From an uncultured Gemmatimonadota bacterium (GTDB lineage: Bacteria; JAAXHH01): a stretch of 64,000 bases of DNA. Positions within the stretch are counted from its first letter, which is position 1, and each line of letters begins with the position of its first letter. Below the pieces are notes generated by a model. It saw nothing but the letters and a program-made list of their open reading frames with translations, was not told the DNA's origin and did no database searches. Where the stretch lies: the NCBI GenBank assembly GCA_951812955.1, contig OX638340.1:2400001-2464000 (forward strand), in the 5' to 3' direction. Below are positions 1,541-25,837 of this stretch, in pieces. Position numbers and translations under genes: made by a program.

Positions 1541-4500
1541 ATGTCACAGCGTTATTTACCTACCTCGAAGTGCAGTTACCGTTTTGCCGTTTACATCATA
1601 ACCTGCGTAACCCTTCTTGGGCTGGCCACCTGCGGCAAGGATAGCCCCACCAAGACCGTTACACCGCCACAACCACCGGCGCCACAGCCTCCGACGCCAC
1701 AGCCTCCGACGACAACTCAACCCGCGCGTATAACAATCACGCCGAGATCGGCGAGTCTGTCCGCCATTGGTCAGAGGATACAACTGTCGGCCACGATTTA
1801 TGACAATCGCAATGTTCAGATCCCAGAAGCCGCAGTGTCATGGTCGAGCAACGATCCTGCCGTTGCCACAGTAGGAGCCCAAGGCCTTGTCACAGCGGTC
1901 GGCAACGGCACGGCCACAATCACCGCGCGGTCAGGAAACGCCTCAGAAACGGCATCCGTGACGGTCTTGCAGACCATCGCCAGTATCGTTGTCTTTCCCA
2001 TGCATAGCACGCTCTATGCCATAGGCGAGACCGTGCAACTAAACGCACTTGCGAGTGATAGGAGCTTGCAGAGTGTAGCCGATGCTGCCTTTACATGGAT
2101 TAGCGACAAACCTGCCGTTGCCACAGTAAGCGACCAGGGCCTAGTCACCGCGGTCAGCAAAGGCACGGCCACCATCACCGCGCGGTCAGGAAACGCCTCA
2201 GAAACTGCAACCGTGACGGTAGTCAGTAGGGACGATACAAGACTCAACCGAGAAGCCCTTGTCGCACTGTATCATAGTACGAATGGACCTGGCTGGACAA
2301 ACAGCACAAACTGGCTGAGCGATGCGCCCCTCGGAAATTGGCATGGCTTGGCTTCGTTTTTCCATGGAGAGGTGGAAGAGGTACGGCATCTTAACCTAAG
2401 GGAGAACAATCTCCAAGGCAAGATCCCACCCGAAATCGGGCAACTGCAGAGCCTAGTAAGTCTGGGGCTCTCCAACAACCAGTTGACCGGAAATATCCCA
2501 CCCGAAATCGGGCAACTCAATGAACTGACAAGCATGGAACTCTCCAACAACCAGTTGAGCGGATATATCCCATCCGAAATCGGGCAATTGCAGAAATTGA
2601 CAAGCATGGGCCTCTACAACAACCAGTTGACCGGAAACATACCATCCGAAATCGGGCAATTGCGAAAATTGACAAGCATGGGCCTCTACAACAACCAGTT
2701 GACCGGAAACATACCATCCGAAATCGGGCAATTGCAGGAATTGACCTTCCTGGGCCTCTACAACAACCAATTGACCGGAAACATACCAACCGAAATCGGG
2801 CAATTGCAGGAACTAACGCGCCTGGACCTCTCCAACAACCAGTTGACCGGAAACATACCAACCGAAATCGGGCAACTGCAGGAGCTTACAGAACTATTCC
2901 TTGGGTATAATTCTGGCCTTACCGGTCCACTGTCTGTAGAGCTCATCATGCTGTCCAATCTAGAGTTTTTTTATATACATAATACGCAGATATGCATTCC
3001 GCAAACATCTCAGTATCTGGCATGGTTTGAAGGTATACGAAACAGGTCAGGAGGTTTATACTGCCCCGCTCCTCATAGAGACTCCCTGATCGCACTGTAT
3101 GACCGGACGGATGGTCCCAACTGGACAAACAGCACGAATTGGAAAAGCCTTGATCCGCTGGACCAGTGGTACGGTATTACTGTTGACGGAGAAGGTCAGG
3201 TTACGGGACTTTCCCTGGAGAACAACAACCTGAACGGAGCGGTACCCCATCATCTGAGTGATCTTTCAAATCTCAAGATCCTCAACTTGTCGTTCAATCC
3301 AGGTCTAACGGGAATCCTGCCTGCTTCAGTGTCGCGCCTGGAACTGGAAGAACTGGAACTGGATGGTACACAGGTCTGCGCGCCTGCGGACACCGAATTT
3401 CAACAGTGGCTGGCTGATATCCCGCAACGTACTGTTACCAACTGTACCGATCTGCGACCGGACTATTATGCATTGGCCGGGCTGTATTTCAACACCACTG
3501 GACAGAACTGGACAAACAACACGAACTGGTTGAGCGACAGGCCGCTTAACACATGGTTCGGCGTGCAGACTAATTCAAGCGAAGAAGTCACGGGGCTGGA
3601 CTTAAAGGAGAACAATCTCGCGGGAGCTATCCCATCTGAAATTGGACAACTACAAAAACTTGAAAATCTGTACCTTTATAGGAACCAGTTGTCGGGCAGC
3701 ATACCCCAGGAAATCGGGCAATTGCAGGAACTGAGATTCCTGGATCTTTCTGATAATCGATTGGCAGGAGATTTACCACCCGAAATCTGGCGACTACAGA
3801 AACTCGAAAATCTGTTCCTTTATGGCAACCAGTTGTCGGGCAGCATACCACCCGAAATTGGACAACTACAGAAACTCGAAAATCTGTTCCTTTATGGCAA
3901 CCAGTTGTCGGGCAGCATACCCCAGGAAATCGGGCAATTGCAGGAACTGAGATTTTTGTATCTTTCTGATAATCGATTGGCAGGAGATTTACCACCCGAA
4001 ATCTGGCGACTACAGAATCTTAGGGCACTGGCTATTCGTGGCGATGCCTATAACCGGGATTCAGGCATCCAGTTGACGGGTATCATACCAGCTGAAGTAG
4101 CTCAGCTGGAAAACCTCGAAACTCTGAATCTCGAGTTTAACAGGTTAACGGGAAATATACCTCCCGAGATCGGAGACTTACAGAAACTCCGATATCTTAG
4201 ACTTGGTGGCAATCGGTTAACCGGGACAATCCCTTCTGAAATCGGAAAACTCCATAATCTGGTAGACCTGATACTTTCTAACAATCGCTTGACGGGGAAC
4301 ATTCCATCCAATATCGGGCAACTTCCGACCCTCGTGACACTTGATCTTTCCAGGAACGAACTGGAGGGTTCCATACCGGCTGAAATAGGAGGTCTACAAT
4401 CCCTTACACAATTGACGCTTAGCAACAACCAGTTGACCGGAACCATTCCAACAGAATTCGCGGGACTTGGCATGCTGGAAGTGCTACGCGTATCATTTAA

Positions 4501-6214
4501 TCGACTGTCGGGCAGTATCCCTGACTCCTTCGGCGATCTGGCCAACTTGAGATATCTGGGACTTACGGACAATGCCAACTTGTCTGGCACGCTGCCCCTA
4601 TCTCTTATCGGTCTGAATCTCGATGATCTGCTGCTCGGTGGCACGATGCTGTGCGCGCCTGAGATTACAGAGATCCAGGACTGGCTGCGGGAGATACCCA
4701 ATAGCCGCGTTTCCCGTTGCGACACCATTAACCTCCGATCTGTAGCTTACCTTACGCAGGCAGTGCAGACGCTGGAGTATCCGGTTCCCCTGGTAGCTGG
4801 TGAGGATGCACTCCTTCGCGTCTTCGTCACGTCCGAAACGGATATGGACGCCTATATGCCCCTGGTGCGAGCAACTTTTTACGAAGGTAGCGCCGAGGTG
4901 CATACCGTGGACATGCCGAGCCAGGAAACGCCCATACCCACGGAGGTCGATGAGGGCGACCTTTCGTCCTCAGCCAACGCACGCATTCCCGGGTCGGTGC
5001 TGACGCCCGGACTGGAGATGGTCATCGAGATCGATCCTGAAGGCGAGTTGGACCCCGCTCTTGGCATAAACGGACGATTGCCAGCGGAAGGACGGATAGC
5101 CATCGATGTACGAGAAATGCCTCCTTTCGATCTGACGATGGTACCTTTTCTGTGGACGGAGAACCCGGACAGGTCCATCCTGGCGCGGGTGGAAGGCCTG
5201 ACTGCCGATTCCGAACTCTTTCGACTTACACGCGATATCCTGCCGGTAGGTGAGTTTTATCTCACCATTCGCGAGCCTGTATGGACTTCGGTGGAGCCAA
5301 CCCCCCACAATTTTGGATCTACCTTTCGTGAGACAGTCACTATACATGCTATGGACGGCGCCGGCGGACACTATATGGGGGTTCTCACAGGGAGCGGTAC
5401 CGGGCTGGCCAATGCTCCGGGAGTAGTGAGTGTCTCAACGCTTGATAACATGGTTATCGCCCATGAACTTGGCCACAACATGAGCCTGGGGCATGCTCCG
5501 TGTGAAATCGGCAGCAACGATCATTTTATAGACCCCGATTATCCCTATCCAGTTTCGGCAGTTGGAGTTTGGGGATACGATCTGCTCAATGAGATGCCTG
5601 TGCAACCTGATACAAAAGAAGTTATGGGCTGTGGTAGCTGGATCAGCGATTACTTCTTCACCAAGGCTATAGGCTATCGATACTATCAAGAAAACGAAAC
5701 TTTGTTCTCCGCGGCATATGAACCACCAGTTCGAGGCCTGCTGCTCTGGGGTGGCGTGAACAGCGACGGTGAAGTTTTACTGGAACCGGCCTTTGTGGTT
5801 GACGCATCACCGTCTTTGCCCGACCTGTATGGGCCGTATCTACTGTCCGGCGAGGATGATGTCGGCGGCACGCTGTTCAGCCTCTCCTTCGGCATGGCCG
5901 AGATCGCAGACGGTGATGGCGAGAGAGCCTTCGCCTTCATCATTCCGGCGAGTACTGAGTGGTCAAACCGGCTTACGCACCTCACGCTGTCAGGGCCTGA
6001 GGGTGTCGCGACACTGGGCGGTGATGGGGGGTTGGAAGAGGAGCCTGCCGCCGCACTCCTGCTGGATCCCACCACGGGCAAAGTGAGAGGCCTCCTGCGC
6101 GACTGGCCGGTGCCGGGGATTACGGCTGTTTCAGCAAGGCGTGTGTTGCCTGAGCCGGGACTGGAGGTTTTTATCAGTTCGGGGGTGCCTGCTCCCGCCG
6201 ACTGGAGGCGGTAA
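1541..6214 (+). CDS. giant secreted lipoprotein: two Big_2 Ig-like domains, three LRRNT-capped plant-type LRR arrays, C-terminal M66/StcE-like zinc metallopeptidase domain
   Basis: 1557-aa ORF; signal peptide with lipobox LATCGKD; Pro-rich linker; duplicated Big_2-like units (ITARSGNASETA[ST]VTV twice); three cap motifs ALYxxTxGPxWTNxTNWLSDxPLxxWxGV each followed by 24-aa repeats LxxLxLxxNxLxGxIPxEIGQLQxL; C-terminal HELGHNMSLGH matches the extended zinc motif HE[VL]GHNxxLGH of peptidase M66 (StcE). Confidence 0.8.
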   Translation: MSQRYLPTSKCSYRFAVYIITCVTLLGLATCGKDSPTKTVTPPQPPAPQPPTPQPPTTTQPARITITPRSASLSAIGQRIQLSATIYDNRNVQIPEAAVSWSSNDPAVATVGAQGLVTAVGNGTATITARSGNASETASVTVLQTIASIVVFPMHSTLYAIGETVQLNALASDRSLQSVADAAFTWISDKPAVATVSDQGLVTAVSKGTATITARSGNASETATVTVVSRDDTRLNREALVALYHSTNGPGWTNSTNWLSDAPLGNWHGLASFFHGEVEEVRHLNLRENNLQGKIPPEIGQLQSLVSLGLSNNQLTGNIPPEIGQLNELTSMELSNNQLSGYIPSEIGQLQKLTSMGLYNNQLTGNIPSEIGQLRKLTSMGLYNNQLTGNIPSEIGQLQELTFLGLYNNQLTGNIPTEIGQLQELTRLDLSNNQLTGNIPTEIGQLQELTELFLGYNSGLTGPLSVELIMLSNLEFFYIHNTQICIPQTSQYLAWFEGIRNRSGGLYCPAPHRDSLIALYDRTDGPNWTNSTNWKSLDPLDQWYGITVDGEGQVTGLSLENNNLNGAVPHHLSDLSNLKILNLSFNPGLTGILPASVSRLELEELELDGTQVCAPADTEFQQWLADIPQRTVTNCTDLRPDYYALAGLYFNTTGQNWTNNTNWLSDRPLNTWFGVQTNSSEEVTGLDLKENNLAGAIPSEIGQLQKLENLYLYRNQLSGSIPQEIGQLQELRFLDLSDNRLAGDLPPEIWRLQKLENLFLYGNQLSGSIPPEIGQLQKLENLFLYGNQLSGSIPQEIGQLQELRFLYLSDNRLAGDLPPEIWRLQNLRALAIRGDAYNRDSGIQLTGIIPAEVAQLENLETLNLEFNRLTGNIPPEIGDLQKLRYLRLGGNRLTGTIPSEIGKLHNLVDLILSNNRLTGNIPSNIGQLPTLVTLDLSRNELEGSIPAEIGGLQSLTQLTLSNNQLTGTIPTEFAGLGMLEVLRVSFNRLSGSIPDSFGDLANLRYLGLTDNANLSGTLPLSLIGLNLDDLLLGGTMLCAPEITEIQDWLREIPNSRVSRCDTINLRSVAYLTQAVQTLEYPVPLVAGEDALLRVFVTSETDMDAYMPLVRATFYEGSAEVHTVDMPSQETPIPTEVDEGDLSSSANARIPGSVLTPGLEMVIEIDPEGELDPALGINGRLPAEGRIAIDVREMPPFDLTMVPFLWTENPDRSILARVEGLTADSELFRLTRDILPVGEFYLTIREPVWTSVEPTPHNFGSTFRETVTIHAMDGAGGHYMGVLTGSGTGLANAPGVVSVSTLDNMVIAHELGHNMSLGHAPCEIGSNDHFIDPDYPYPVSAVGVWGYDLLNEMPVQPDTKEVMGCGSWISDYFFTKAIGYRYYQENETLFSAAYEPPVRGLLLWGGVNSDGEVLLEPAFVVDASPSLPDLYGPYLLSGEDDVGGTLFSLSFGMAEIADGDGERAFAFIIPASTEWSNRLTHLTLSGPEGVATLGGDGGLEEEPAAALLLDPTTGKVRGLLRDWPVPGITAVSARRVLPEPGLEVFISSGVPAPADWRR
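2390..2900. repeat. near-identical 72-bp tandem repeats (encode 24-aa LRR units) inside the LRR gene, first array
   Basis: repeated DNA unit ...caaccagttgaccggaaacataccatccgaaatcgggcaattgca... visible at least 7 times; generates strings of antisense shadow ORFs. Confidence 0.85.
3640..4030. repeat. 72-bp tandem repeats (LRR units), third array of the same gene
   Basis: repeated ...ctttatggcaaccagttgtcgggcagcatacc(a/c)c(c/a)ggaaat(t/c)gg(a/g)caa(c/t)t(a/g)cag... units. Confidence 0.8.
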
Positions 6215-6264: not shown

Positions 6265-7332
6265 TCATTCGGTACCAATCCCCTTATCCCATGGAACATC
6301 CGACAGCCAGGGCCCGATCTGGTCCCCGTAAGCGAAGATAGCCGGCAGTCCACCCGTATGGATGAACAGCACCCGGCTACCCGCAGGGATAACGCCTGAA
6401 CGCACGTGTTCGATCAGTCCCGCCATCGTCTTGCCGGTGTAGACCGGGTCGAGGAGCAGCCCCTCCTGACGTGCCGCAAGGGCGATCGCTTCGCGCGCGA
6501 CTTCGTTGAGCCGGCCATAACCGGGCGCTAGCACGCCGTCAAACGCCATCACGTCACCCGCGTCGAACGCCTCCGGCTGTTCGATCATCGCGGCCAGTTG
6601 CTCCGCCACTTTACTCACCCGCGCCACCTGGCTGCCGGCATCGCGTCGCACGCAGATGCCGTACACGGGCACGTTGACGCCCAAGGCCCGCAGCCCTACC
6701 AGGATACCCGCGTGGGTCAGGGCGCTGCCCGTGGGACAGACCACGGCGTCGAATTCCAGCTCGAGGGACCGGGCCTGTGACAGGGTCTCCTCGGCCGCGA
6801 TGACGTATCCGAGCGCACCGATCGGAGGATGGGCGGGGGCGAGATGGATGACGTAGGGCCTGCGGCCCTCCTCTTCGAGCGATTGGGCAAGCAGGTCCAG
6901 CGCCGCGTCCGCCGCGGGCTCATCATCGCCGACCGGGAAGGAATGCAGCTTCGCGCCGAAGAGGCGGTCGAGCAATACGTTGCCAGAAGTACGGTAAAGG
7001 TTGTCCACGTCGGACACGCGCTCTTCCAGCTGGATGTGTGTCTCCATGCCAAGTCGGCGTCCGGCGGCCGCGGCCACGCGGACGTAGTTCGACTGCACCG
7101 CGCTGGTGATCAACAGGGTGTCGGCATCCCGGGACTGCGCCTCGCCCAGGGGGAATTCGATTTGGCGGACCTTGTTTCCGCCCATCACCAGTCCCGTGCA
7201 GTCGTCGCGCTTGATCCACAGCTCGATGCCGAGTTCCGCGCCGAGGCGTGGCGCGGCCTCGAGCGGCGTGGGCGCGTGACATAGCCGGACCCGGGGGAAC
7301 TTGTCGATGGCCTTGGAAAGTCGACTGGGCAT
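6265..7332 (-). CDS. PLP-dependent ACC deaminase / D-cysteine desulfhydrase family enzyme
   Basis: 355 aa; N-terminus TPLEAAPRLGAELGIELWIKRDDCTGLVMGGNKVRQIEF typical of the DcyD/AcdS fold-type II PLP family. Confidence 0.8.
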   Translation of the reverse strand: MPSRLSKAIDKFPRVRLCHAPTPLEAAPRLGAELGIELWIKRDDCTGLVMGGNKVRQIEFPLGEAQSRDADTLLITSAVQSNYVRVAAAAGRRLGMETHIQLEERVSDVDNLYRTSGNVLLDRLFGAKLHSFPVGDDEPAADAALDLLAQSLEEEGRRPYVIHLAPAHPPIGALGYVIAAEETLSQARSLELEFDAVVCPTGSALTHAGILVGLRALGVNVPVYGICVRRDAGSQVARVSKVAEQLAAMIEQPEAFDAGDVMAFDGVLAPGYGRLNEVAREAIALAARQEGLLLDPVYTGKTMAGLIEHVRSGVIPAGSRVLFIHTGGLPAIFAYGDQIGPWLSDVPWDKGIGTE

Positions 7333-7365: not shown

Positions 7366-7523
7366 GACCCGGCCGGTCCGGTTTATTACTCAGGGTAAAC
7401 CGGGTTTCCGGAATCGACCGGGTTTCCGGAATCGACCGGGTTTCCGGGTTCGACTTGTATCCGGGCTCGACCGGATTCTCGGATCAGGCGGGTTGCCCGG
7501 ACGAACCGGTTTCCCACGCGGAC
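7366..7523. repeat. degenerate 18-bp direct-repeat array (about 7 units, consensus CCGGGTTTCCGGAATCGA) upstream of the DcyD-like gene
   Basis: units at 7400-7417 and 7418-7435 are identical, followed by progressively diverged copies; no spacers of unique sequence. Confidence 0.7.
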
Positions 7524-9025
7524 TTGAGTTCGTGGACGGTCAGCGATACGATGCGCGCGCCGCCGCTGTCCGACCGCAACGCCAGAGCGTGATTGGCCGC
7601 TGCCGGCAGGAAGCAGAATGACATGGACAATTCCCCACCGTTACCGAAGATCTCCAGGGAGGTGCGGTCGACCAGGAGCTGGAGCCGCACGCGCCGCCCG
7701 ATGGTCCTCAGGTCCGCGCTCCTTCCCATGCACGAAAGGGTCTGCCTTGCCGCGTCGTATGCCACATCGTGGCCCTGCACTTCGATGGTGAATCCCTTTC
7801 CTTCGCCGATTGCGTTGTCGGCTTGGCGCCCTTCAGCACCGCACACCTCGATCTCCATGCACACGTCGAACAGGTCGCCCTCTTCCGCAAGCACCAGCCG
7901 GCTTTCCGAGTCGCGCAGGCTCGTTACCGCGTAACTGCCGATCTCACCCCTGCCGTATTGCCGTCGAAACTGTTCGGCCGCCATTGCAGCCAGGTCACCG
8001 CCCGGCCAGTTGCGAGTCCCTGTATGAAGCAGTTCGATCTCCCTCACCGGCTCGCGGCACAGCCGTATACCCACCGGCAACGTCCTGAGCGTCAGCTCCA
8101 CCGGGAAGGTCATCTGCTGGTTGAAGGGCATGGCCGGGTATTTGCCGTCCCGCATCCACGAGATCTGGATCCGCCGTCCGTCCTCCGACGGGAGGTCGCT
8201 CCAGGTCTGGGCGGCATATCCGTTGGCGCCCTCTTCCGCCTGGAGGACGTCCGTTTCCGGCGTGAAGGTCTTGCCGTCGAAGCGCCCGAGCAGGTAACCG
8301 CCGCTCGCGCCCCAGAATACCCAACGCGTGTCCGAGGGATCTCCGTCCACCGGCAGTTCGAAGAAATCTGGACATTCAGACACGCCGGGCAGGGTCAGGT
8401 CCTGCAGACGCGTCCACGACCTGAGGTCCGGGGACGAGAACAGGGCGTAGTCGTTGCCGTCCATGAACAGGGTCATGATCCATCGCGCGGTCGGTTCGTA
8501 CCAGACCACCTTCGGATCCCGGTTCTCCGAACGGATATGCCCGATAACGGGATTGCCCGCATATTTCATCCACGTCCGGCCGCGATCATTGCTGTGGGCT
8601 ATACATTGTATACACCGCTTACCGGGGAACATCCTTTCGCCCCCCGCCGTGTAGAAGGCGATCAGGGGCGGATCATCTCCGTCCTGGAACCCGCCGGTAT
8701 TTTGATGGTCCACCGCCGCGGAACCCGACCACATCCATCCCGTGTCGTCCACGTCCAGCGCGGCGATATGGAGCTGCTTCCAGTGGACGAGGTCGGTGCT
8801 GACCGCGTGGCCCCACGTCGTGCGCCCGTGCACCATACTGCCCGGCGTGTGCTGGAAGTAAAGATGGTACTCCCCGTCGAAATAAACCAGTCCGTTGGGA
8901 TCGTTGATCCAGTGCTGCTTCGCCGTGAAGTGAAACTGGGGGCGGAGAGTTTCCCGGTAGAGGGTGTCGTTGGGCATCGCAGCGCCATTAGGTTTCGCTG
9001 ATTGGCCGGTCAGGATTCGCTCCAC
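7484..9025 (-). CDS. glycoside hydrolase family 32 (beta-fructofuranosidase / sucrose-6-phosphate hydrolase-like), cytoplasmic
   Basis: motifs HWINDPNGLVYFDGEYHLYFQ (catalytic nucleophile block), RDPKVVWYE (RDP) and ECPDFFEL (EC); no signal peptide; alternative start at 8977 (MPNDTLYRE). Confidence 0.9.
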   Translation of the reverse strand: MERILTGQSAKPNGAAMPNDTLYRETLRPQFHFTAKQHWINDPNGLVYFDGEYHLYFQHTPGSMVHGRTTWGHAVSTDLVHWKQLHIAALDVDDTGWMWSGSAAVDHQNTGGFQDGDDPPLIAFYTAGGERMFPGKRCIQCIAHSNDRGRTWMKYAGNPVIGHIRSENRDPKVVWYEPTARWIMTLFMDGNDYALFSSPDLRSWTRLQDLTLPGVSECPDFFELPVDGDPSDTRWVFWGASGGYLLGRFDGKTFTPETDVLQAEEGANGYAAQTWSDLPSEDGRRIQISWMRDGKYPAMPFNQQMTFPVELTLRTLPVGIRLCREPVREIELLHTGTRNWPGGDLAAMAAEQFRRQYGRGEIGSYAVTSLRDSESRLVLAEEGDLFDVCMEIEVCGAEGRQADNAIGEGKGFTIEVQGHDVAYDAARQTLSCMGRSADLRTIGRRVRLQLLVDRTSLEIFGNGGELSMSFCFLPAAANHALALRSDSGGARIVSLTVHELKSAWETGSSGQPA

Positions 9026-9047
9026 CGTTCGCTTTTGACGCCGCGAA

Positions 9048-9596
9048 TCACACGTTCGTCTCGATCAGCGTAACGCTGTGGGGATCCAGCAGGGTATAGT
9101 CCACGACTTCGAATCGGTTGCCGTCGACGTCGGTGAGCAAAAGCCGCGTATCCGAGGCCCAGTGGGTGTTCTCGTGGCCGCGGATGACGAACTCCCGTCT
9201 GCCCCGGTCGGTCATGACGTTCCAGTAGGTGACGCCGTACTCCATCTGAATGGAGTCAATGCGCTGTATCGTGGCGCGCAGGTACCGGTGGTCCAGCTCT
9301 TCCTCGATGACCTTGCGGGAATCTTCGTCCAGGTCGTCCATGTCCCGGATGAAGGCCACTTCCTCGTTCTTTATGTCCAGGAGCGACACGTACCGGTCGG
9401 TGTGGGCCAGGGGCGAGGCCTGGACCGGCCGGACGCGTATATAGGACCGCTCGGCGCCGACCGTCATGCGCACCGTGTTCGTCGGCGCCCGGAAGACCCG
9501 TATCTCGTGAGCCTGATAGGGTTCGACGGGGGCGTTCTCGATGCCCGTCTCGAATTCAAAGCTGTCCGGCGCGTCTACGCCTGGTTCATCCGGCAT
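9048..9596 (-). CDS. small acidic cytosolic protein, hypothetical; last gene of the ABC exporter operon (possibly DUF1854-like, recalled from memory)
   Basis: 182-aa ORF, starts 14 bp downstream of the upstream ABC gene stop; no TM segments; no catalytic motif recognised. Confidence 0.5.
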   Translation of the reverse strand: MPDEPGVDAPDSFEFETGIENAPVEPYQAHEIRVFRAPTNTVRMTVGAERSYIRVRPVQASPLAHTDRYVSLLDIKNEEVAFIRDMDDLDEDSRKVIEEELDHRYLRATIQRIDSIQMEYGVTYWNVMTDRGRREFVIRGHENTHWASDTRLLLTDVDGNRFEVVDYTLLDPHSVTLIETNV

Positions 9597-9610
9597 TTCT
9601 ATCTCCCCGC

Positions 9611-11899
9611 TCAGGATGTATGTCCGTTGGCGCCGCTGTGCGGGTCGTTCCGGCCCCCGCCCACGGCCATGACGGCGGTGCTGGCACGCTGGGTTTCAAC
9701 CATTCGGTAGAAATGACCCTTCATGCCCAGCAGCTCCGCATGAGTGCCCGTCTCCACGATCCGTCCCGCGTCCAGCACCACCAGACGGTCCGCTCGGCGA
9801 AGGGTCGACAGCCGGTGGGCGATGGCAAAAGTCGTCCGGCCCTTCACGAGATTGGCGATGGCCTCCTGGATGAGCTTCTCCGTGTGGGTGTCCACCGAGG
9901 AGGTGGCCTCGTCCAGGATCAGGATGCGGGGATCGTGGATGATAGCCCGCGCGATGGCGATCCGCTGCTTTTCGCCGCCCGACAGTTCCTTGCCGTTCTC
10001 GCCGATCTGCGTATCGTATCCGTCGGGCTTCGCGCAGATGAAGTCGTGGGCGTTCGCCGTCCGCGCCGCCCGCATGATCTGCTCGAAGGAGGCGTCCGGA
10101 CTGCTGTACCGGATGTTCTCCGCGACGGATCCGCTGAAGAAGTAGGAGTCCTGCAACACCACGCCGATCTGCCTTCGAAGGTCCTTCAGGCTGATGTCCC
10201 GGATCGGCACGCCGTCGATCTTCAGGCCGCCGTCATCGATATCGTAAAACCGGCACAGCAGGTTGGTCATCGTCGTCTTGCCGGAACCGGACTTGCCTAC
10301 CAGACCGATCATCTCGCCCGGCTGCACGTGGAGGTTGATGTCGTGGAGTACGGGCTTGCCGGCCTCGTAAGCAAAGACCACGTCGCTGAATTTCACCTCG
10401 CCCTTTACGTCATTCATCTCTACCGGGACGTCCCGATCCTCGGTTTCCGCCGGCGTGTCTACGATCTCGAAGACCTTTTCCGCGCCGCTCATGGCACGGC
10501 TCGACCAGGTGTTCAGTTCGCCGAACCACCGAAGGGGCTCGTAGAGCATCCAGAGATAGGCGATGAACATCATGAGTGCGCCGAGGGTGAACGAGTCGTC
10601 GATTATGGCAGAACCCCCGTAGTACCAGACCAGGATCAGGCCAGACGAGGTAAGCATGCTGACCGTGCTGAAGAACACGGCCGCCTCCTTCTCGCTTTCG
10701 TAATCTCCCCGGAAGACGCCTTCGTTGCTGCTGCGGAACCGGCGCATCTCACGTTTTTCCTGGACGAAGGTCTTGACGACGCGCACGGAGGAGAGCATCT
10801 CGCCCGCGAGCCCTACGAGTTTGCCCCACCGGTAGTACTTCGTCCGGAAAGCCCGGATCAGCCGGATCCAGAAGAACCATCCTCCCGTTACGAGCAGAGG
10901 TATGGGAATGAGCACGAGAAGCGTGAGTTGCCAGCTGGTTATAAAAAGCAGGACCAGGATGCCCACCATGAGCAGGAGGTTGGTAATGATGTAGGGCACT
11001 CCGTCGACCAGGAACCACATCATGCTTTCCGTGTCGTTGGACACCCGCGAAATCAGGGATCCGACCTGGCGCTTGTTGTAGAATTTCATGCTCAGGCGGG
11101 AAAGGTTCTCGTACAGGTCTTCGCGGACGGACACGATCACGCGGCCGCCGAGCCATACGGAAAGCCGGTCCCTGAAGATCTCGAGGACGTAGGATCCCAG
11201 GCGGACGAACGCGAACGCGCCGATGAGGTAGTAGAGGAACGTCAAGGCGTCCTCGCGCGCGTCTACGTCCGCGACCAGGACGTCGTCGATGATGTAACGC
11301 ATAATGTAGGGCGGGCCGAGTTCCGCCAGGGTGAAGAGGAGCGACAGGAATACCATCATCGCGATGCGGCCCTTGAAGGGCAGGGCATACTTGGCGATCC
11401 GTCCCATCATCGCGAGCCGGTTGGTGCACGCCGAACAGATCCCGTTCGGCTCAGGCAGGAGGCGGTCGCATTTGCCGCACCTTGTCCGGTCTACTTCTCC
11501 CTGCATGTCGACCGGTTCGTCCTTGATGAGCTGGTCGATGCCCCGGGCGATCCGAGCGAACTTGGCGCGCTGGGTCGCGGTGTAGCGGAGGACCTCGATC
11601 TCTTCGTTTCCGATTACCACGTTGATTCGGCCCGAGCCTACCAGTTCCTCCACTGCGGCGCTTTTGGCGTCGGAAAACTCGATGGAAGCGTCCCCGTTTC
11701 CCATGCTTGCGCCGTTGGAATCGAACCGCATCAACCGCTGGTCCGTCACCACGAGCCAGCGTTCCTCGAACCGCAGTTCTTCCGTCAGGTCGGTCGCCGC
11801 CGCGATGCGGATGGTTTCCCCTTCCCGCAGCGCCTCCCGGCAACGGTCGGCCAGCGCGTCGGGCATCCGCTCTTCGTAGCTGGTTGTGCTATCCGTCAT
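9611..11899 (-). CDS. ABC exporter, fused permease/ATPase half-transporter with N-terminal PH-like domain and CxxC-x17-CxxC zinc ribbon
   Basis: 762 aa; Walker A GKSGSGKTT, ABC signature LSGGEKQRIAIARA, Walker B ILILDEATSS; 6-TM type-I exporter core; about 150-aa cytosolic N-terminal extension with CGKCDRLLPEPNGICSAC. Confidence 0.9.
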   Translation of the reverse strand: MTDSTTSYEERMPDALADRCREALREGETIRIAAATDLTEELRFEERWLVVTDQRLMRFDSNGASMGNGDASIEFSDAKSAAVEELVGSGRINVVIGNEEIEVLRYTATQRAKFARIARGIDQLIKDEPVDMQGEVDRTRCGKCDRLLPEPNGICSACTNRLAMMGRIAKYALPFKGRIAMMVFLSLLFTLAELGPPYIMRYIIDDVLVADVDAREDALTFLYYLIGAFAFVRLGSYVLEIFRDRLSVWLGGRVIVSVREDLYENLSRLSMKFYNKRQVGSLISRVSNDTESMMWFLVDGVPYIITNLLLMVGILVLLFITSWQLTLLVLIPIPLLVTGGWFFWIRLIRAFRTKYYRWGKLVGLAGEMLSSVRVVKTFVQEKREMRRFRSSNEGVFRGDYESEKEAAVFFSTVSMLTSSGLILVWYYGGSAIIDDSFTLGALMMFIAYLWMLYEPLRWFGELNTWSSRAMSGAEKVFEIVDTPAETEDRDVPVEMNDVKGEVKFSDVVFAYEAGKPVLHDINLHVQPGEMIGLVGKSGSGKTTMTNLLCRFYDIDDGGLKIDGVPIRDISLKDLRRQIGVVLQDSYFFSGSVAENIRYSSPDASFEQIMRAARTANAHDFICAKPDGYDTQIGENGKELSGGEKQRIAIARAIIHDPRILILDEATSSVDTHTEKLIQEAIANLVKGRTTFAIAHRLSTLRRADRLVVLDAGRIVETGTHAELLGMKGHFYRMVETQRASTAVMAVGGGRNDPHSGANGHTS

Positions 11900-12059
11900 G
11901 CCTCAGTGTCCTTGCCTATTCCGACGGCCGGCTTCGTTAAAGTCCTCACGGACCGGCCGGTTTTGATCAAACTTCGGTCAGGCCCCGGTCAAGCCTCACG
12001 GATCTTCCCGGCCGGCACGTGAGCGGTCAGGCCCCGGTCAAGCCTCGTTCAGGCCCTGG

Positions 12060-14324
12060 TCAGGCAACCTCCATGATCTCGGAGGTGGCTTTCTGCAGCC
12101 GCACCAGATGATGGAAATGACCGCGGTTTGCGATCAGTTCCTCGTGGGTGCCTTCCTCGACGACCTTTCCCTGCTCCAGCACCACGAGCCTGTCGGCGTC
12201 CCGCAGCGTGGAAAGGCGGTGGGCGATGGCGATCGTGGTGCGTCCCTTGATCAACCGGGCAATGGCTTCCTGGAGCTGTTTCTCCGTCTCGGCGTCCACC
12301 GAGGAGGTCGCCTCGTCCAGGATCAGGATGCGGGGGTCGTGGAGGATCGCCCGGGCGATCGAGACGCGCTGCTTCTCACCGCCCGACAGTCCGTTGCCCT
12401 TGTCCCCGAGTATCGTGTCGTATCCATCGGGCTTTGCGAGGATGAAGTTGTGGGCATTTGCCGCCCGGCCCGCCGCCATGATATCCTCAAAACTCGCGGC
12501 GGGTTTTCCATAGGCGATATTCTCCCGGATCGTCCCGTTGAAGAGGATCGGTTCCTGCAGGACGACGCCGATATGGCCACGCAGATCCTCGAGCCGGATG
12601 TCCCGCAGGTCCACGCCGTCCAGGGTGATCGAACCGTAATTGACATCGTAGAACCGGCAGATGAGATTGATGGTCGTACTCTTCCCGGCGCCCGACTTGC
12701 CAACCAGCCCGATCATCTCGCCGGGCCGGATCCGGAGATTGACGTCCCGGAGCACCGGAAGGGCTGCGTCATAGCCGAAGGTCACGTTATTGAATACGAT
12801 CTCGCCCTGCGTGCGCGGCATCGGCTTCGCGGTCCGGTCCTCATAATTCTCCGGTTCCATGTCGATGAGCTCGAATACCCGTTCGGCGGCGCTCATCGCC
12901 CGGGTCATCCAGCTGTTGACCCGGCCGAGCCACCGTAGCGGTCCGTAAAACATCTGCAGGTAGAAGTAGAACAACATCAGTTCGCCCGGGGTAAGTTCCT
13001 GGCCGAGCACCTGCCTGCCCCCCACCAGCCAGACCACGATGAAGCCCAGGAAGTTCAGCAGGCCCATGGTGGAGAAGTAGTAGATCCACTGCTTCTCGGT
13101 CCAGTATTCCAGGGCGAACATGTCCCGCGCGTTGCGCCTGAACCGGTCGACTTCCCTGTTTTCCTGTGCGAAGGCCTTGACGATGCGAATCCCCGAAAGG
13201 GACTCCTGGATGTGGGTGAAGAACCCTTCCCATTGGCGCCACATGCGTGTGTAATAGGACCGCAGTCTTCGGTACAGGACCCGGCCCCATATGACGATGA
13301 ACGGCACGGGAATGAGAATGTAAAGCGTGAGCACCCAGTTGGTATACAACAGCATACCGATGATCCCGAGCGTCGTCAGCCAGCGGAGGACGAGGAATGG
13401 CAGGCCGTCCACCAGGAAGCTGCGCACGTTCCGGGTGTCCCGCGTAACCCGCGAAAGCAGGCCGCCCGTCTTTTGCTTGTCGTGGAATCCCAGCGACAGG
13501 TATTCGACGTGGTGGTACACCTGGGCCCGGATATCCGCCACAACCCGGGCGCCTACCCAGGCCGTCAGCCAGCCGTTCGCCATCTCGCCCAGCCAGCGGA
13601 TGACAAGCAGTCCGGCCATGGCCGCGACGAACCAGAACAGAAGCTCCTTGTCCCCGTCCGGGAAGGCGTCGTCGATGATGAGCTGCGTGATCTTGGGCGG
13701 GAGGAGTTCCGCCACACTGAGTACCGCGAAGAGCCCCACCATGGTTATGGCCTTGGCCCGATGGGCGCCAAGGTAGGAGCAGATCCGCTTGAGCATGCCC
13801 CACTTGCTGACACAGGCCGGACACAGCCCGTCCTTCGTGGGCAGGCGACGGCCGCAAGTCTCGCAGACTACCCGCGGGAACTCGGTCTTGACCTGGAACG
13901 GCTTTTCCTCGATGTGCTGCTCGATACCGCGCTGCGCCTCGTTGAAGACGTCGACCCGGCTCTGGGAATACCGGATGAGCGGGATGGTGTCTTTGGCCGT
14001 GGAAACTTCCAGGCAGGAACCGCCGACCAGGGGTTCCACCGCCACCCTGGTCAGGTCCGCCAGCGGGACGGCGATGTCGTCGCCGGCGCCGTTGAGTTCC
14101 AGGGTCATGACGCGGCGGTCGGTTACGATGAGCCAGGAAGGCTCGAATCGGCCTTTCGCATCCATGTCCGATTCCAGGGTGATGCGGATTTCTTCGTTGG
14201 GTTCCAGAACGGGGTAGAGTTTTTTCTGAATCTGATCCGGCAGGGGATCGGCCAGGCGCATAGAACTTCCTTTGGGCCTATGCTGCGGGGAGTGGCTGCG
14301 TGCGGACTGAACGGAACCGTTCAT
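12060..14324 (-). CDS. ABC exporter half-transporter, paralogous partner with the same N-terminal PH-like plus zinc-ribbon extension
   Basis: 754 aa; GKSGAGKST, LSGGEKQRVSIARA, ILILDEATSS; N-terminal CETCGRRLPTKDGLCPAC; alternative start at about 14261 (MRLADPLPD). Confidence 0.9.
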   Translation of the reverse strand: MNGSVQSARSHSPQHRPKGSSMRLADPLPDQIQKKLYPVLEPNEEIRITLESDMDAKGRFEPSWLIVTDRRVMTLELNGAGDDIAVPLADLTRVAVEPLVGGSCLEVSTAKDTIPLIRYSQSRVDVFNEAQRGIEQHIEEKPFQVKTEFPRVVCETCGRRLPTKDGLCPACVSKWGMLKRICSYLGAHRAKAITMVGLFAVLSVAELLPPKITQLIIDDAFPDGDKELLFWFVAAMAGLLVIRWLGEMANGWLTAWVGARVVADIRAQVYHHVEYLSLGFHDKQKTGGLLSRVTRDTRNVRSFLVDGLPFLVLRWLTTLGIIGMLLYTNWVLTLYILIPVPFIVIWGRVLYRRLRSYYTRMWRQWEGFFTHIQESLSGIRIVKAFAQENREVDRFRRNARDMFALEYWTEKQWIYYFSTMGLLNFLGFIVVWLVGGRQVLGQELTPGELMLFYFYLQMFYGPLRWLGRVNSWMTRAMSAAERVFELIDMEPENYEDRTAKPMPRTQGEIVFNNVTFGYDAALPVLRDVNLRIRPGEMIGLVGKSGAGKSTTINLICRFYDVNYGSITLDGVDLRDIRLEDLRGHIGVVLQEPILFNGTIRENIAYGKPAASFEDIMAAGRAANAHNFILAKPDGYDTILGDKGNGLSGGEKQRVSIARAILHDPRILILDEATSSVDAETEKQLQEAIARLIKGRTTIAIAHRLSTLRDADRLVVLEQGKVVEEGTHEELIANRGHFHHLVRLQKATSEIMEVA

Positions 14325-14701
14325 ATATCAATAAAGTGGATGCACCCTTAAGCCATCATTGCCGCGAATGCCGTTGAAGCATTCATCGGGAGTGCGTTAA
14401 ACCCCCGTCCGAACCAGTTTGTGAAAGTACATTTTCGAGCACCAAAGTCAAGGAGAAGCTTCGGCATGAACGCGTTTATTTCCTGTATATTCCTTGATTT
14501 ACGTACGCCTCCGCTTACATTGCGTGAGGTCGTTCCGAACCTGAATTTTTACCGCATGTGATCGTCCCGAACCCGTATCCTTACCGTGTGTGGCCATTCG
14601 GTACCCGTATACCCACAACCTGAAATCACCCTGAACGCCAGATCTCATCCGAGTTCTCACGGGGCCGATCATTCCCCGGCCCTGTCACGACAGCCTGACT
14701 C

Positions 14702-15763
14702 ATGATGACCCCGCACCGATTGGAAAATCTGTTGTCCCGCTTCGCCGGACTGTCCGTCCTGGTCGTCGGCGACTTCTTCCTCGACAAGTACCTGGTCATC
14801 GATCCGGATCTCGATGAGCCGTCCCTGGAGACCGGGCTGCACGCGCACCAGATAGTGGACCGCCGGTGCATGCCAGGCGCAGCGGGTACGGTCACGTCCA
14901 ACCTGCACGCCCTGGGCGTCGGGAACATCCATGCCCTCGGCGTCACGGGCGACGACGGGGAAGGATACGAACTCAGGCAGGGGCTGGCGGCGATGGATGT
15001 GCGGCTGGAGGGACTGATCGTATCCCCGGAACGATTCACGCCCACCTACATCAAGCCCATGTACCGCGAGCAGGGCGTAGAGCGGGAATCGAACCGGATC
15101 GACCTGCAGAACCGGACGTCCACGCCGGGTGCGCTGGAAGACCGGATCATCGAAAACCTGCGAGACATGGCGCCCGTGATGGATGGGCTGGTCGTACTGG
15201 ACCAGGTGGGACAGCGCAACACCGGGGTCGTCACGGACCGGGTCCGGGAAGCGATCTGCGACCTGGGCAGGACCCAACCGGAAAAGGTCATCCTGGCGGA
15301 TTCCCGCGAACGCATCGGCGAGTTCCGTCATGTGATTCGCAAGGGGAACCGAAGCGAAATCCACCGTGCCGCGCCGGACAGGTCGGACAGGTCGGAAAGA
15401 ACGGGCAGAACGGACAGATCGCATGCGGCCGGATGGGGCCAGGCGCTTTTCGAACGCGGCCTGGACGCGGGCGAAGGAACTTACAGGCCGGTTTTCGTCA
15501 CCCTGGGCGAGGACGGCTTGCTAGTGATCGATGACGACGGCTGCCGTCATTTGCCGGGCATCACGGTTCCCGGGTCCGTGGACACGGTCGGTGCGGGAGA
15601 CAGCGTCACCGCCGGGATCGTTTCCGCGCTCGCCGCCGGCGCGACCCTTGACGAGGCTGGCTTGGTGGGAAACCTGGCGGCTTCCGTCACCGTCCGGCAA
15701 CTTGGGGTCACCGGAACGGCGTCGCCGGGGCAGCTGTTGGAAGCTTTGAAAGCGCTAGGTTGA
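14702..15763 (+). CDS. PfkB-family carbohydrate kinase (RfaE/HldE kinase-domain-like)
   Basis: N-terminal LSVLVVGDFFLDKYL and C-terminal PfkB signature DTVGAGDSVTAGIV; contains a low-complexity insert RSDRSERTGRTDRS encoded by short DNA repeats. Confidence 0.75.
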   Translation: MMTPHRLENLLSRFAGLSVLVVGDFFLDKYLVIDPDLDEPSLETGLHAHQIVDRRCMPGAAGTVTSNLHALGVGNIHALGVTGDDGEGYELRQGLAAMDVRLEGLIVSPERFTPTYIKPMYREQGVERESNRIDLQNRTSTPGALEDRIIENLRDMAPVMDGLVVLDQVGQRNTGVVTDRVREAICDLGRTQPEKVILADSRERIGEFRHVIRKGNRSEIHRAAPDRSDRSERTGRTDRSHAAGWGQALFERGLDAGEGTYRPVFVTLGEDGLLVIDDDGCRHLPGITVPGSVDTVGAGDSVTAGIVSALAAGATLDEAGLVGNLAASVTVRQLGVTGTASPGQLLEALKALG

Positions 15764-20351: not shown

Positions 20352-20459
20352 GGGTCCAATTTAGATGATAATCAATTATTGTACGTTGATACTCGCTCTC
20401 AGTTCAATGGGTGATGGAAGACCATCAATTGTAGTGGTAGTTACCACGATATATTAAAG

Positions 20460-20624
20460 CTAAATCGAAATCCCGTAAACCAACATTACGGTACCGGCGA
20501 TAAGCGCGATTAGTCCCCTGTTCCGGGTGGTGAGTCCGATCCGTTCATACGTTCTGCCGCTGGCCCATACAAGCACGCCCGAGACGAACAGGTATATGCC
20601 GGCGGCGATCAATGCTACGCTCAT
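20460..20624 (-). CDS. possible small two-TM membrane peptide (hypothetical)
   Basis: internal Met of ORF 20460-20843 gives 54 aa with two hydrophobic helices (MSVALIAAGIYLFVSGVLVW...IALIAGTVMLVYGI); no homology recognised. Confidence 0.2.
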   Translation of the reverse strand: MSVALIAAGIYLFVSGVLVWASGRTYERIGLTTRNRGLIALIAGTVMLVYGISI

Positions 20625-23157: not shown

Positions 23158-24000
23158 ATGCGCCAGTTCGACCGGAAATTCGGCGAAAGGCTCATCGAGA
23201 ATTCTCCCATGACACCTGCGGTATACCTGTTCAAGGACGGGCAGGGCTCGGTGATCTACGTCGGCAAGGCCGGGAACATCCGCCGGCGCCTCCAGCAGTA
23301 CCGCAACGCCTCTCGGCGCAAGGTGCACCGCAAGATGCGGACGCTGGTCCGAGAGGCGAGCGCTCTCGAGATCATCCCTCAGGAATCCGAACGCGAAGCC
23401 CTGTTGCTCGAGAACGAACTGATCCGCAAGCTGCGGCCGCCGTACAACGAGGACGGCACGTGGGATTTTCTATATCCGGCACTCGGAATCGGCGGCACCG
23501 AAAAACAGGTACTGATTTGCTTCACAACCCACGTGGACGCGTGGAAAAGCCTGGACCTGAGGTGGTACGGCGTGTTCAAATCGCGGCGGCGGGCGCTGGC
23601 CGCATTCGATGCGCTGGTCTACCTCCTGCGGCTGATCGGACATATCGAACCGGTGCGGTATCTTCCGCCCCACGAACGGATCCGGGGTTCCCGCCTCACC
23701 GGTTTCCGCCAATTGGCGCCCGAAGTCGTTTCCGCGCTGGACCGCTTCCTGTCCGGAGTCGGCCCCGAAGCGCTCCTACCCCTGACCCACGGTCTGCTGG
23801 AAAAACCCGCCGCCCGCCACGACGCATCGGAAGTCCAGCGGAACATCCGCATGCTCGCGCACTTCCACGAAAGGGACCTCGCGCCCCTGCGCGCGGCCAT
23901 GCGTTCTGCGGGGCGGCCGGGCTCCTTCGTGTCCCAGGCCGAGCGCGACGCGCTGTTCCTGGCCACGGACGAGCGGATCGGCAATGAGGCGGATCCCTGA
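23158..24000 (+). CDS. GIY-YIG nuclease, Cho/UvrC-N-terminal-like excinuclease
   Basis: 280 aa; GIY-YIG core AVYLFKDGQGSVIYVGKAGNIRRRLQQY ... ENELIRKLRPPYN; size matches Cho rather than full-length UvrC. Confidence 0.65.
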   Translation: MRQFDRKFGERLIENSPMTPAVYLFKDGQGSVIYVGKAGNIRRRLQQYRNASRRKVHRKMRTLVREASALEIIPQESEREALLLENELIRKLRPPYNEDGTWDFLYPALGIGGTEKQVLICFTTHVDAWKSLDLRWYGVFKSRRRALAAFDALVYLLRLIGHIEPVRYLPPHERIRGSRLTGFRQLAPEVVSALDRFLSGVGPEALLPLTHGLLEKPAARHDASEVQRNIRMLAHFHERDLAPLRAAMRSAGRPGSFVSQAERDALFLATDERIGNEADP

Positions 24001-24111
24001 CCTCGCCGCCGGCAAAGATTCCGCAAATTCGAAGTAAGTAAATAACCATCAGTAAGGAGTTTTAGAAATAGTAATTTCTATTGACAATAGTAAGGGTTTT
24101 CTTGTAGAGTA

Positions 24112-24381
24112 ATGATATTGTCCGATGACCATGGGAGACATACGACCGTGATTGAATCCGGCATCACGAGCAAAGGGCAGACCACGGTGCCCAAGTTGGT
24201 ACGGGAAGCGCTTGGTCTGGAGTCCGGCGACAGGGTGCGATACGTGATTGATGACCAGGAAGTGCGCATGCTGCCCGTACGTCCGATCGGCAGGCTGTTT
24301 GGCGTACTCAGACATTGTGGCCCACCCGTCACCATCGACGAGATGGAACAGGCCGTTGCCCGCGGAGCCGTCGACCAATGA
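24112..24381 (+). CDS. vapB: AbrB/SpoVT-fold antitoxin (VapB-like)
   Basis: ITSKGQTTVPKLVREALGLESGDRVRYVIDD swapped-hairpin motif; overlaps downstream PIN gene. Confidence 0.6.
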   Translation: MILSDDHGRHTTVIESGITSKGQTTVPKLVREALGLESGDRVRYVIDDQEVRMLPVRPIGRLFGVLRHCGPPVTIDEMEQAVARGAVDQ

Positions 24382-24770: not shown

Positions 24771-24906
24771 GGAACGAATACTCACCCGTCCGATGTTTTA
24801 CCGAGTGACCAAATAGCTGAAACGAACCAGGGAAGATTGCCTGCTTACCATGAAGAAGCGCTGCTACTTAATCGAGGCATACGCTTCTTCTTAATCGAGA
24901 CATACC

Positions 24907-25764: not shown

Positions 25765-25837
25765 GGGATGAGAGCCCCGATCAGATGAAGGATTGCTCAA
25801 CCTGTTGGGTATGGTTTTCGATCCCGTGTTTACCAAC

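Follow-up and report, generated by a model that had tools for sequence, protein, structure and literature searches.

A lipoprotein-type protein with plant-type leucine-rich repeats and a predicted M66-related metalloprotease unit in an uncultured Gemmatimonadota bacterium

The gene, its surroundings and the proposed N-terminal stalk

The window analyzed here is a stretch of 64,000 nucleotides from an uncultured Gemmatimonadota bacterium. An uninterrupted open reading frame at 1541–6214 on the plus strand, with an ATG start and 1557 codons plus stop, constitutes a complete gene and a single-gene unit, and its product is 1557 aa long. All protein features described below are encoded on the same strand. 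The gene is convergent with a minus-strand PALP gene at 6265–7332, and neighboring genes in the window encode DUF5683, the PALP enzyme, GH32, DUF1854, two ABC exporters, PfkB, and Lhr. These are unrelated housekeeping or transport genes, and a reading of the locus as an operon or system was therefore dropped; within the window, the neighbors give no pointer to a substrate or pathway for the lipoprotein. No peptide-uptake genes adjoin it, and a tblastn search with the 1557-aa protein found no paralogue elsewhere in the window. Scans for promoters and terminators returned signals no higher than the shuffled expectation.

The protein starts with a signal peptide (aa 1–31, 1541–1633), MSQRYLPTSKCSYRFAVYIITCVTLLGLATC, which ends in the lipobox-like L-A-T-C31. 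L at -3 and A at -2 conform to a lipobox, and the Thr at -1 is atypical. Lipobox-like endings are present in 72 of 136 representative relatives, 19 of these 72 N-termini also have Thr at -1, and the ending xTCGKDSPT, often as TCGKDSPTKP, recurs among relatives. The lipoprotein signal proposed in the earlier note is probable, with LATC31-GKDSPTK as an ending common to many relatives, and the mature protein would begin CGKDSPTK, lipidated at C31. A Pro/Thr-rich linker (aa 32–60, 1634–1720) follows, which derives in part from a 15-bp tandem repeat at 1665–1711. The linker leads into two Big_2 Ig-like domains (aa ~61–228, 1721–2224), matched by Pfam at aa ~62–142 and 156–227 with 87.6 bits for the N-terminal fragment. 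Their C-terminal halves are near-identical, which indicates a recent duplication and agrees with the earlier description of a duplicated pair. With the signal-peptide residues Cys11, Cys22, and Cys31 (the lipobox Cys) set aside, all cysteines group into four pairs local in sequence, each a candidate disulfide. Together with the lipobox-like endings, these local pairs favor a probable extracytoplasmic location.

Three capped modules of plant-type leucine-rich repeats

The central part of the protein gives very strong Pfam matches to LRR_1, LRR_8, LRR_4, and LRR_14, and is organized in three modules. Module 1 (aa ~237–508, 2249–3064) contains an N-cap, seven canonical plant-specific LRRs of 24 aa, additional terminal units, and a C-cap with Cys485/Cys508. 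Module 2 is short (aa ~513–635, 3077–3445), with an N-cap, 2–3 LRRs, and a C-cap with Cys613/Cys635. Module 3 is the largest (aa ~642–1060, 3464–4720); between its N-cap and its C-cap (Cys1038/Cys1060) there are ~14–15 LRRs, including a single irregular 32-aa unit at aa ~824–855. The N-caps begin at aa 240, 516, and 645 with the motif ALYxxTxGxxWTNxTNW...PLxxWxG[VIL]. HMMs built for the caps retrieved exactly three N-caps and three two-cysteine C-caps. We located 21 LRR units, 17 of them at exact 24-residue spacing, with the consensus LQxLxxLxLxxNQLxGxIPxEIGQ, which fits the plant-specific class; the three capped blocks described earlier are confirmed. At the DNA level, 72-bp tandem repeats at 2426–2890 and 3638–3948 match the 24-residue units. 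Variability within the unit is highest at positions 6 and 8, which correspond to the concave face.

The ectodomains of plant LRR receptor kinases and PGIPs are built from the same 24-residue unit, LxxLxxLxLxxNxL(T/S)GxIPxxIGx, and LRR block 1 finds its best PDB sequence matches in the plant receptor kinases GSO1, FLS2, HAESA, PEPR1, and TDR, with E-values down to 1e-198. The caps differ from those of plants. The earlier note called the N-cap LRRNT-like, and this applies to its shape: the NWxGV part, and only that part, aligns with the plant LRRNT_2 cap. However, PF08263 gave no match at E<=0.1, and the N-caps have no cysteines and thus lack the Cys pair of the plant cap CxWxGVxC. The N-cap is therefore LRRNT-like in shape but lies outside the PF08263 family. 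The C-cap has a longer strand-helix element than its plant counterpart, with two Cys 22–23 residues apart. Unlike the plant receptors, the protein has no transmembrane kinase, and it has three separate capped solenoids per chain.

Among bacterial LRR proteins, LIC10831 and LIC11098 of Leptospira were PDB matches to the LRRs. The LRR part alone also matched the NCBIfam models of the Xanthomonas effectors XopAE (261.7 vs a cutoff of 600), XopAC (196.7 vs 450), and XopL (120.5 vs 500), and with all scores far below the curated cutoffs, membership of these effector families was ruled out. The logic of fusing an LRR targeting module to an enzymatic domain is common to the Xanthomonas effectors and the protein described here. 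The effectors, however, work within host cells as type III substrates, and their enzymatic domains are E3 ligases or AMPylases rather than proteases, whereas the present protein is of lipoprotein type with predicted disulfide-bonded caps.

The predicted protease unit and its relationship to M66

The C-terminal protease unit comprises three parts. An N-terminal beta-sandwich (aa ~1068–1205, 4742–5155), delineated by the secondary structure of an AF2 model, has weak MG/CARDB-like beta-sandwich matches. A metzincin-type catalytic domain (aa ~1212–1390, 5174–5710) carries H1308-E1309-xx-H1312-xxxxx-H1318, WGYD at 1344–1347, Met1362, and the pair Cys1321/Cys1364. The C-terminal beta-sandwich (aa ~1397–1557, 5729–6211), also seen in the AF2 model, is conserved family-wide. 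The junction between the LRRs and the protease is likewise conserved in the family, and a 708-aa model (pLDDT 89.1, pTM 0.87) predicts that LRR module 3 and the protease unit are rigidly joined, the high pTM being an indirect indication of rigidity.

The motif HELGHNMSLGH is found at aa 1308–1318, where the earlier note had placed a zinc peptidase, and the surrounding domain supports that assignment. The metzincin clan is defined by a third zinc ligand six residues past HExxH together with the metzincin fold, and both are found here. Met1362 (D/E-x-M-x-x-C), a candidate for the Met-turn residue beneath the zinc, is invariant and lies 44 residues past the third His, similarly placed to D-A-M518 of StcE. 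At motif position 8, the family has Ser (136), Asn (58), or Gly (26), with Ser in the window's protein, and position 10, where this protein has Gly, varies.

These substitutions in the Gly-turn could be taken to mean that the metzincin is inactive or latent and that the protein serves as a non-catalytic adhesin or decoy, whose LRR mimic binds host receptors so that phagocytosis is evaded. LRR eukaryotic-like proteins are indeed enriched in sponge symbionts and have been proposed as modulators of host recognition (PMC11706023, PMC9531527). Conservation of the active site makes this very improbable: in 30–40 aligned relatives, whose mean column identity is only 43–51%, neither the zinc ligands nor the catalytic Glu nor the Met varies, and HExxHxxxxxH is kept in 129 of 136 representative relatives, which argues for selection for catalysis.

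The assignment to M66 (PF10462, the family of StcE and of TagA from Vibrio cholerae) holds only as a distant relationship. The whole protein scored 19.6 bits, below the cutoff of 20.6, and the isolated C-terminal 517 aa scored 21.5 bits, with the match confined to profile positions 166–236 (71 of 306). Among relatives, 29 of 30 matched PF10462 at E<=0.01, the best at 1.4e-10. Homology to StcE itself is detectable, at 13% identity in a sequence alignment of the core only. A PDB profile search matched adamalysins, not StcE, and Foldseek gave no PDB structure match at E<=1e-3. Matches to proteasomal Rpn2 in a single-sequence phmmer search of the PDB with the C-terminal 517 aa were attributed to chance. 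Adamalysin/ADAM/ADAMTS (M12B), fragilysin, ulilysin, and archaemetzincin are also metzincins, but the protein has no Pfam M12B match at the cutoff, and in contrast to M12B it lacks disintegrin and Cys-rich domains as well as a recognizable prodomain. The WGYD segment and the beta-sandwiches on either side of the catalytic domain favor M66 over M12B. On sequence grounds, the catalytic domain thus appears to be a distant relative of the M66 metzincins, with M66/StcE as its best named relative. The family is a deep branch beside M66, in which Ser or Asn usually takes the place of the Gly-turn glycine of metzincins.

The spacing of the zinc ligands had been taken earlier as a feature separating M66 from metzincins. 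This is incorrect, since StcE, encoded on pO157 of E. coli O157, carries HEVGHNYGLGH, the canonical HExxHxxGxxH, with spacing and ligands identical to those of the protein described here. What does differ is position 8, which is Gly in StcE and in classical metzincins, and Ser in the window's protein. StcE also lacks the Cys pair (Cys1321/Cys1364 is specific to the LRR-metzincin family), has a much longer protease unit, and is devoid of LRR arrays and Big_2 domains. It is a soluble substrate of type II secretion with adjoining etp genes, whereas the window's protein is of lipoprotein type. Mucinase activity has been demonstrated for StcE only. We therefore consider it unlikely, although less so than the decoy, that the protein is a true M66 O-glycoprotease, restricted to densely O-glycosylated mucin-domain proteins and directed to a glycoprotein by its LRRs; the distant StcE relationship is the one observation in favor of such a mucinase.

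A large, probably mobile family and its proposed role

The earlier note regarded the architecture as uncommon. Profile searches instead retrieved 8027, 5336, and 2026 protein clusters at E<=1e-3, 1e-10, and 1e-30, and layouts with several LRR modules are common in the family. Three modules per protein is the commonest arrangement among 79 genomic relatives (33/79); among 136 representative proteins one module is commonest (56), with three in 37, and family members have up to eight capped modules. Relatives were recovered from MAGs of Latescibacterota, Gemmatimonadota, Acidobacteriota, and Gammaproteobacteria, often with several paralogues per genome. The window's gene is an ordinary member of this very large and well-catalogued, but functionally uncharacterized, family, which appears to reside chiefly in bacteria of marine sponges. 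Twenty-two of the 79 genomic relatives were traced to sponge studies, the habitat of many UUID-named MAGs lying outside that tracing, and MAG names lead back to Aplysina, Ircinia, and Rhopaloeides sponges (PMC11706023, PMC9531527, PMC10469786).

The gene lies in a low-GC3 island, with a GC3 of 0.57 vs 0.79–0.88 in core genes. An effect of LRR amino-acid composition was ruled out, because the Big_2 (0.59), LRR (0.55), and protease (0.60) parts have equally low GC3 values. The 15.2–23.9 kb segment of the window shares 83–88% identity with a Latescibacterota MAG, a similarity that was read as pointing to a Candidatus Latescibacterota source. In a closely related Latescibacterota MAG (L010), a paralogue is located within a 4-kb low-GC island, and the corresponding site in the window is empty. 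None of the 79 related loci has immediate neighbors in common with the window gene, and no positional orthologue was found among them. An exact-sequence lookup in public assemblies gave no identical copy of the protein. Given a very large multi-phylum family, foreign islands, and variable presence, the gene behaves like a horizontally exchanged accessory host-interaction factor.

We propose a horizontally mobile gene for a surface-anchored metzincin that is guided by its LRRs and acts on extracellular proteins, probably those of a host, a reading to which we assign a probability of roughly 60%. The Pro-rich linker and the two Big_2 domains would form a stalk extending from the lipid anchor of a sponge-associated bacterium, and the three capped, disulfide-closed plant-type LRR solenoids would provide protein-binding surfaces. 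Their concave faces may capture a specific extracellular protein and offer it to the zinc endopeptidase, whose site is intact by sequence (H1308, E1309, H1312, H1318, Met1362) and which would then cleave the captured protein. The target is most plausibly a sponge matrix or cell-surface protein. The analysis shows the domain anatomy, the fold, the integrity of the motif, the size and taxonomic spread of the family, the compositional island, and the presence/absence polymorphism; from these we infer that the protein is lipidated and surface-exposed, is catalytically active, captures its substrate through the LRRs, and has a host target.

Sponge symbionts inhabit a protein-rich matrix. A nutritional surface protease, foraging generally on environmental or matrix proteins such as collagen or spongin for amino-acid uptake and using its LRRs and Big_2 domains only as spacer or adhesin, would be consistent with this habitat, with the lipoprotein-type anchor, with a metzincin fold near the broad-specificity adamalysins, and with the many paralogues per genome. 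It is not evident, however, why such a protease would need as many as eight capped LRR modules with variability concentrated on the binding face, or a conserved, predicted rigid LRR-protease junction, and adjacent peptide-uptake genes are absent. We judge it improbable, slightly more so than the mucinase.

The eukaryotic-like proteins (ANK, LRR, TPR, WD40) of sponge symbionts are thought to be horizontally acquired and host-interacting (PMC11706023, PMC9531527, PMC12993501). The family has its ecological and taxonomic setting in common with these proteins. A more speculative extension, which we advance tentatively, is a 'symbiosis toolkit' exchanged across phyla, in which the LRRs of each paralogue would recognize one protein of the sponge's extracellular space or immune surface (for example a pattern-recognition receptor, an aggregation factor, or a mucin-like glycoprotein of the matrix), and the protease would shed or inactivate that target, allowing the symbiont to escape phagocytosis in the mesohyl. 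If true, sponge-symbiont LRR proteins of the eukaryotic-like type would gain a first assigned enzymatic mechanism.

In the literature searched on M66 and sponge symbionts, or on Peptidase_M66 and leucine-rich repeats, no LRR-metalloprotease fusion is described, and the sponge-symbiont papers searched only count repeat domains and ascribe no enzymatic role to the LRR class. Sponge-symbiont genomes are recurrently marked by eukaryotic-like repeat proteins, and a large share of the LRR proteins there would be the targeting half of a conserved, predicted surface protease. As the window's gene is an ordinary member, the value lies in the family and not in this copy. With thousands of clusters in at least four phyla, often multicopy and in foreign islands, the family offers a testable hypothesis, in which proteins of the host surface or matrix are the targets of proteolysis, along with a defined reagent set comprising the catalytic unit, the LRR modules, and E1309A as control.

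The LRR-protease gene and its domains

The LRR-protease gene (1541-6214, +) starts with ATG, about 10 nt downstream of AAGGA, and encodes without interruption a product of 1557 aa. Its downstream neighbour lies on the opposite strand, and the gene therefore forms a single-gene unit. From N- to C-terminus, the translation comprises a signal sequence, a Pro/Thr-rich linker, two Big_2 domains, three LRR modules, and a unit of roughly 500 aa carrying HELGHNMSLGH at residues 1308-1318. Pfam searches returned both Big_2 domains, whose C-terminal halves are near-identical, and very strong LRR matches. The ORF, the Big_2 pair, the three capped LRR modules and the HELGHNMSLGH motif were thus all found again, and the sequence description in the earlier note is accurate.

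The signal sequence ends in L-A-T-C31, with an atypical Thr at position -1. Lipobox-like N-termini were present in 72 of 136 representative relatives, with A (22), T (19), S (16) or G (15) at -1, and the exact ending TCGKDSPTKP is repeated in many of them. Beyond the signal peptide, the Cys residues can be grouped without exception into four local pairs (485/508, 613/635, 1038/1060, and 1321/1364). Together, the recurrent ending and the paired cysteines support the prediction of an exported, lipid-anchored protein. Acidic residues shortly past the lipid Cys are a surface-export signal in Bacteroidota. By analogy, the conserved C-G-K-D here, and C-G-D in Gemmatimonadota relatives, may hint toward surface export, as a lead only. 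The proline-rich linker of PQPP type behind the lipobox Cys is encoded in part by a 15-bp tandem repeat at 1665-1711 (3.1 copies, 90% matches) and could be a length-variable stalk.

Each LRR module opens with the N-cap motif ALYxxTxGxxWTNxTNW...PLxxWxG, at residues 240, 516, and 645, and closes with G-T-x-[LVI]-C-x-P...C; HMMs made from the caps found back exactly three N-caps and three C-caps. The modules hold 21 located units, 17 with exact 24-residue spacing, and the consensus LQxLxxLxLxxNQLxGxIPxEIGQ assigns them to the plant-specific class. When module 1 was compared with PDB sequences, plant LRR receptor kinases led, with GSO1 on top (E 1e-198), followed by FLS2, HAESA, PEPR1, TDR, and BRI1, while Leptospira LRR proteins and SHOC2 ranked behind. 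In these alignments the plant cap could be aligned with the NWxGV part of the N-cap. The N-caps contain no cysteines and the plant cap family PF08263 (LRRNT_2) had no Pfam match in the protein, so the N-cap is LRRNT-like without being a PF08263 member; the proposed plant-type arrays with LRRNT-like caps hold up to that extent. At the DNA level the repeats are 72-bp tandem repeats with 73-86% identity, which indicates that units were duplicated recently. Entropy across the units peaks at positions 6 and 8, located on the beta-strand of the concave face, the ligand-binding surface in other LRR proteins.

Relationships of the protease unit

PF10462 (Peptidase_M66) scored 19.6 bits on the whole protein, just below the cutoff of 20.6, and 21.5 bits on the isolated 517 aa; in both searches only profile positions 166-236 of 306 were covered, and weaker Reprolysin matches ranked behind. 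A single-sequence search of the unit against the PDB gave no match. A 30-member family profile picked up adamalysins, aligned in the region of the zinc helix (E 0.006); StcE, the pO157 mucinase that typifies M66, was not among the 60 PDB matches listed for this profile. PF10462 was matched by 29 of the 30 aligned family members (best E 1.4e-10), and hhalign aligned the family with StcE, its sequence read from pO157, over 72 columns (83% probability, E 8.7e-6). This stretch extends beyond the zinc motif and pairs WGYD with WGWD of StcE. We conclude from these comparisons that the unit is a metzincin, on a deep and divergent branch with M66/StcE as its nearest characterised relative. The earlier assignment to an M66/StcE-like zinc peptidase is retained in this sense, although the PF10462 score itself is marginal and partial.

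The argument from motif spacing, said to mark M66 as opposed to metzincins, has to be abandoned. StcE carries HEVGHNYGLGH (residues 446-456), with Gly at position 8 and also at position 10; it is a canonical metzincin HExxHxxGxxH, so spacing cannot tell the two apart. Position 10 is variable across the family. It is at position 8, Gly in StcE and classical metzincins, that the family departs, with Ser in the LRR-protease and S in 136, N in 58, and G in 26 of 256 family proteins. StcE also lacks the Cys pair 1321/1364, whose two residues enclose the third His and Met segment in the LRR-protease. H1308, E1309, H1312, H1318, and Met1362 are invariant, although mean column identity in the family alignments is only 43-51%. 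Such conservation speaks for a functional enzyme; a non-catalytic decoy is less likely.

Family, hosts and proposed function

The LRR-protease belongs, as an ordinary member, to a very large and functionally uncharacterised family that databases already catalogue, in which an M66-like metzincin is joined to LRR modules of the plant type. With the C-terminal unit as query, a word-indexed search gave at least 1362 matches, most with LRR plus PF10462; NCBI calls a few of them 'M66 family metalloprotease'. When 1.84 billion representatives were searched exhaustively with a profile, the yield was 8027 clusters at E<=1e-3, with 5336 at <=1e-10 and 2026 at <=1e-30; the best 150 of these 8027 are mostly 900-2750 aa long, with the protease unit C-terminal. 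Three modules are commonest in the ORFs of genomic relatives (33/79, against 24/79 with one) and follow the long-short-long layout of the LRR-protease. The 136 representative proteins (median 1341 aa) most often have one module (56), then three (37), and at most eight. Judged by these module counts and cluster numbers, the 'giant' multi-module layout is typical of the family, and not the uncommon architecture first supposed. Two relatives from the profile search, P0121 and P0122, scored 1457 and 1110 bits, about twice the typical score, with two matched stretches each, which suggests two protease units per chain of about 1900-2000 aa.

The 79 genomic relatives belong to Gemmatimonadota (55; Longimicrobiales, Ca. 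Palauibacter and others), Latescibacterota (9), Acidobacteriota (5), Gammaproteobacteria (2), and Versatilivoraceae (1), with 7 unclassified; some of the genomes, several in number, hold two or more of the loci. The family is likely enriched in sponges, with 22/79 relatives linked to sponge studies through the MAG name, a count that excludes UUID-named MAGs and includes RHO_ and p16x bins by naming pattern alone. Aplysina aerophoba is the source of the APA_ bins and Ircinia ramosa that of the SB06xx bins (PMC11706023), the jk18x bins stem from Caribbean Ircinia (PMC9531527), and some Ca. Palauibacter species names refer to sponge and coral hosts (PMC10469786). Published lists of eukaryotic-like proteins in sponge symbionts include LRR proteins (PMC11706023, PMC9531527); we found no mention of a protease fusion to LRR in that literature.

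The predicted model of residues 850-1557, covering the last eight LRRs and the protease unit, is a single confident body (pLDDT 89.1, pTM 0.87), and the junction (C-cap, RVxxC, AYLTQAVQS) is conserved, which suggests that LRR module 3 is not on a loose tether but would serve the protease as a fixed exosite. LRR-guided proteolysis at the bacterial surface is the most likely function, in which the LRRs would capture a specific extracellular protein for cleavage by the protease. A general foraging protease is less likely, and mucin-type specificity is possible by analogy, its sole basis being the distant StcE relationship. Given the ecology of the family, the putative target of LRR-guided cleavage is probably of host origin. 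Sponge symbionts thus have in this family a candidate factor for host interaction, and the significance lies with the family, not with the window's copy.

Genomic setting

The window comes from a close relative of Candidatus Latescibacterota MAG p16x34bins.14, since the MAG's locus L010 shares 83-88% nucleotide identity with 15.2-23.9 kb of the window and the two Lhr helicases are 89% identical at the protein level. L010 contains a paralogue (LRR plus M66-like, L010:3751-7524; protease unit 49% identical to the window's) inside a low-GC island of ~4 kb (L010:3640-7690) that separates the Lhr helicase gene from the next gene; the corresponding site in the window is an empty, short intergenic spacer (20352-20526). 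At 0.53, GC of the LRR-protease gene is below that of its flanks (about 0.62-0.66), and its GC3 is 0.57, compared with 0.79-0.88 for core genes. An origin of the low GC in LRR amino-acid composition was ruled out, as GC3 stays low throughout, with 0.59 in the Big_2 part, 0.55 in the LRR part, and 0.60 in the protease part. The upstream DUF5683-family gene (766-1365, +) has a GC3 of 0.60, so the island extends at least to position 766 and possibly past the window's left edge. The gene's neighbours are common to none of the 79 related loci. With foreign GC3, an empty site and unshared neighbours, family genes are accessory and compositionally foreign, and related genomes differ through their gain or loss.

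Core DNA and acquired DNA together make the window a mosaic. Further low-GC islands (GC3 0.55-0.66; core about 0.8) lie at 24000-28400, 34000-38200, and 42000-51000. Their accessory genes encode two AAA_14/DUF4143 ATPases, a toxin-antitoxin pair of DUF6088 and AbiEii, and, in a row on the minus strand, a MacB-type permease, an HlyD-type adaptor, DUF7790, and an M48 peptidase. The highest GC (0.66-0.70) is found at 28484-33412 (-), where a DnaE-type polymerase III alpha homologue (1132 aa) adjoins an IMS/ImpB-family protein (496 aa), a pair that resembles an imuB-dnaE2 error-prone repair cassette. GH32 (fructan/sucrose hydrolase), DUF1854, two fused ABC exporter genes, and a PfkB sugar kinase at 7484-15763 may be a sugar-utilisation cluster, which appears unrelated to the LRR-protease gene. 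A 794-aa fusion of GAF, PAS, HisKA, HATPase, receiver, and OmpR-type DNA-binding domains (54297-56681, +) is encoded 48 kb from that gene. Three loci of other lineages (L027 and L045, Gemmatimonadota; L007, Latescibacterota) have homologues of the fusion, with 51-61% aa identity, at a distance of up to 6 kb from family members, which may reflect chance or a conserved regulator.
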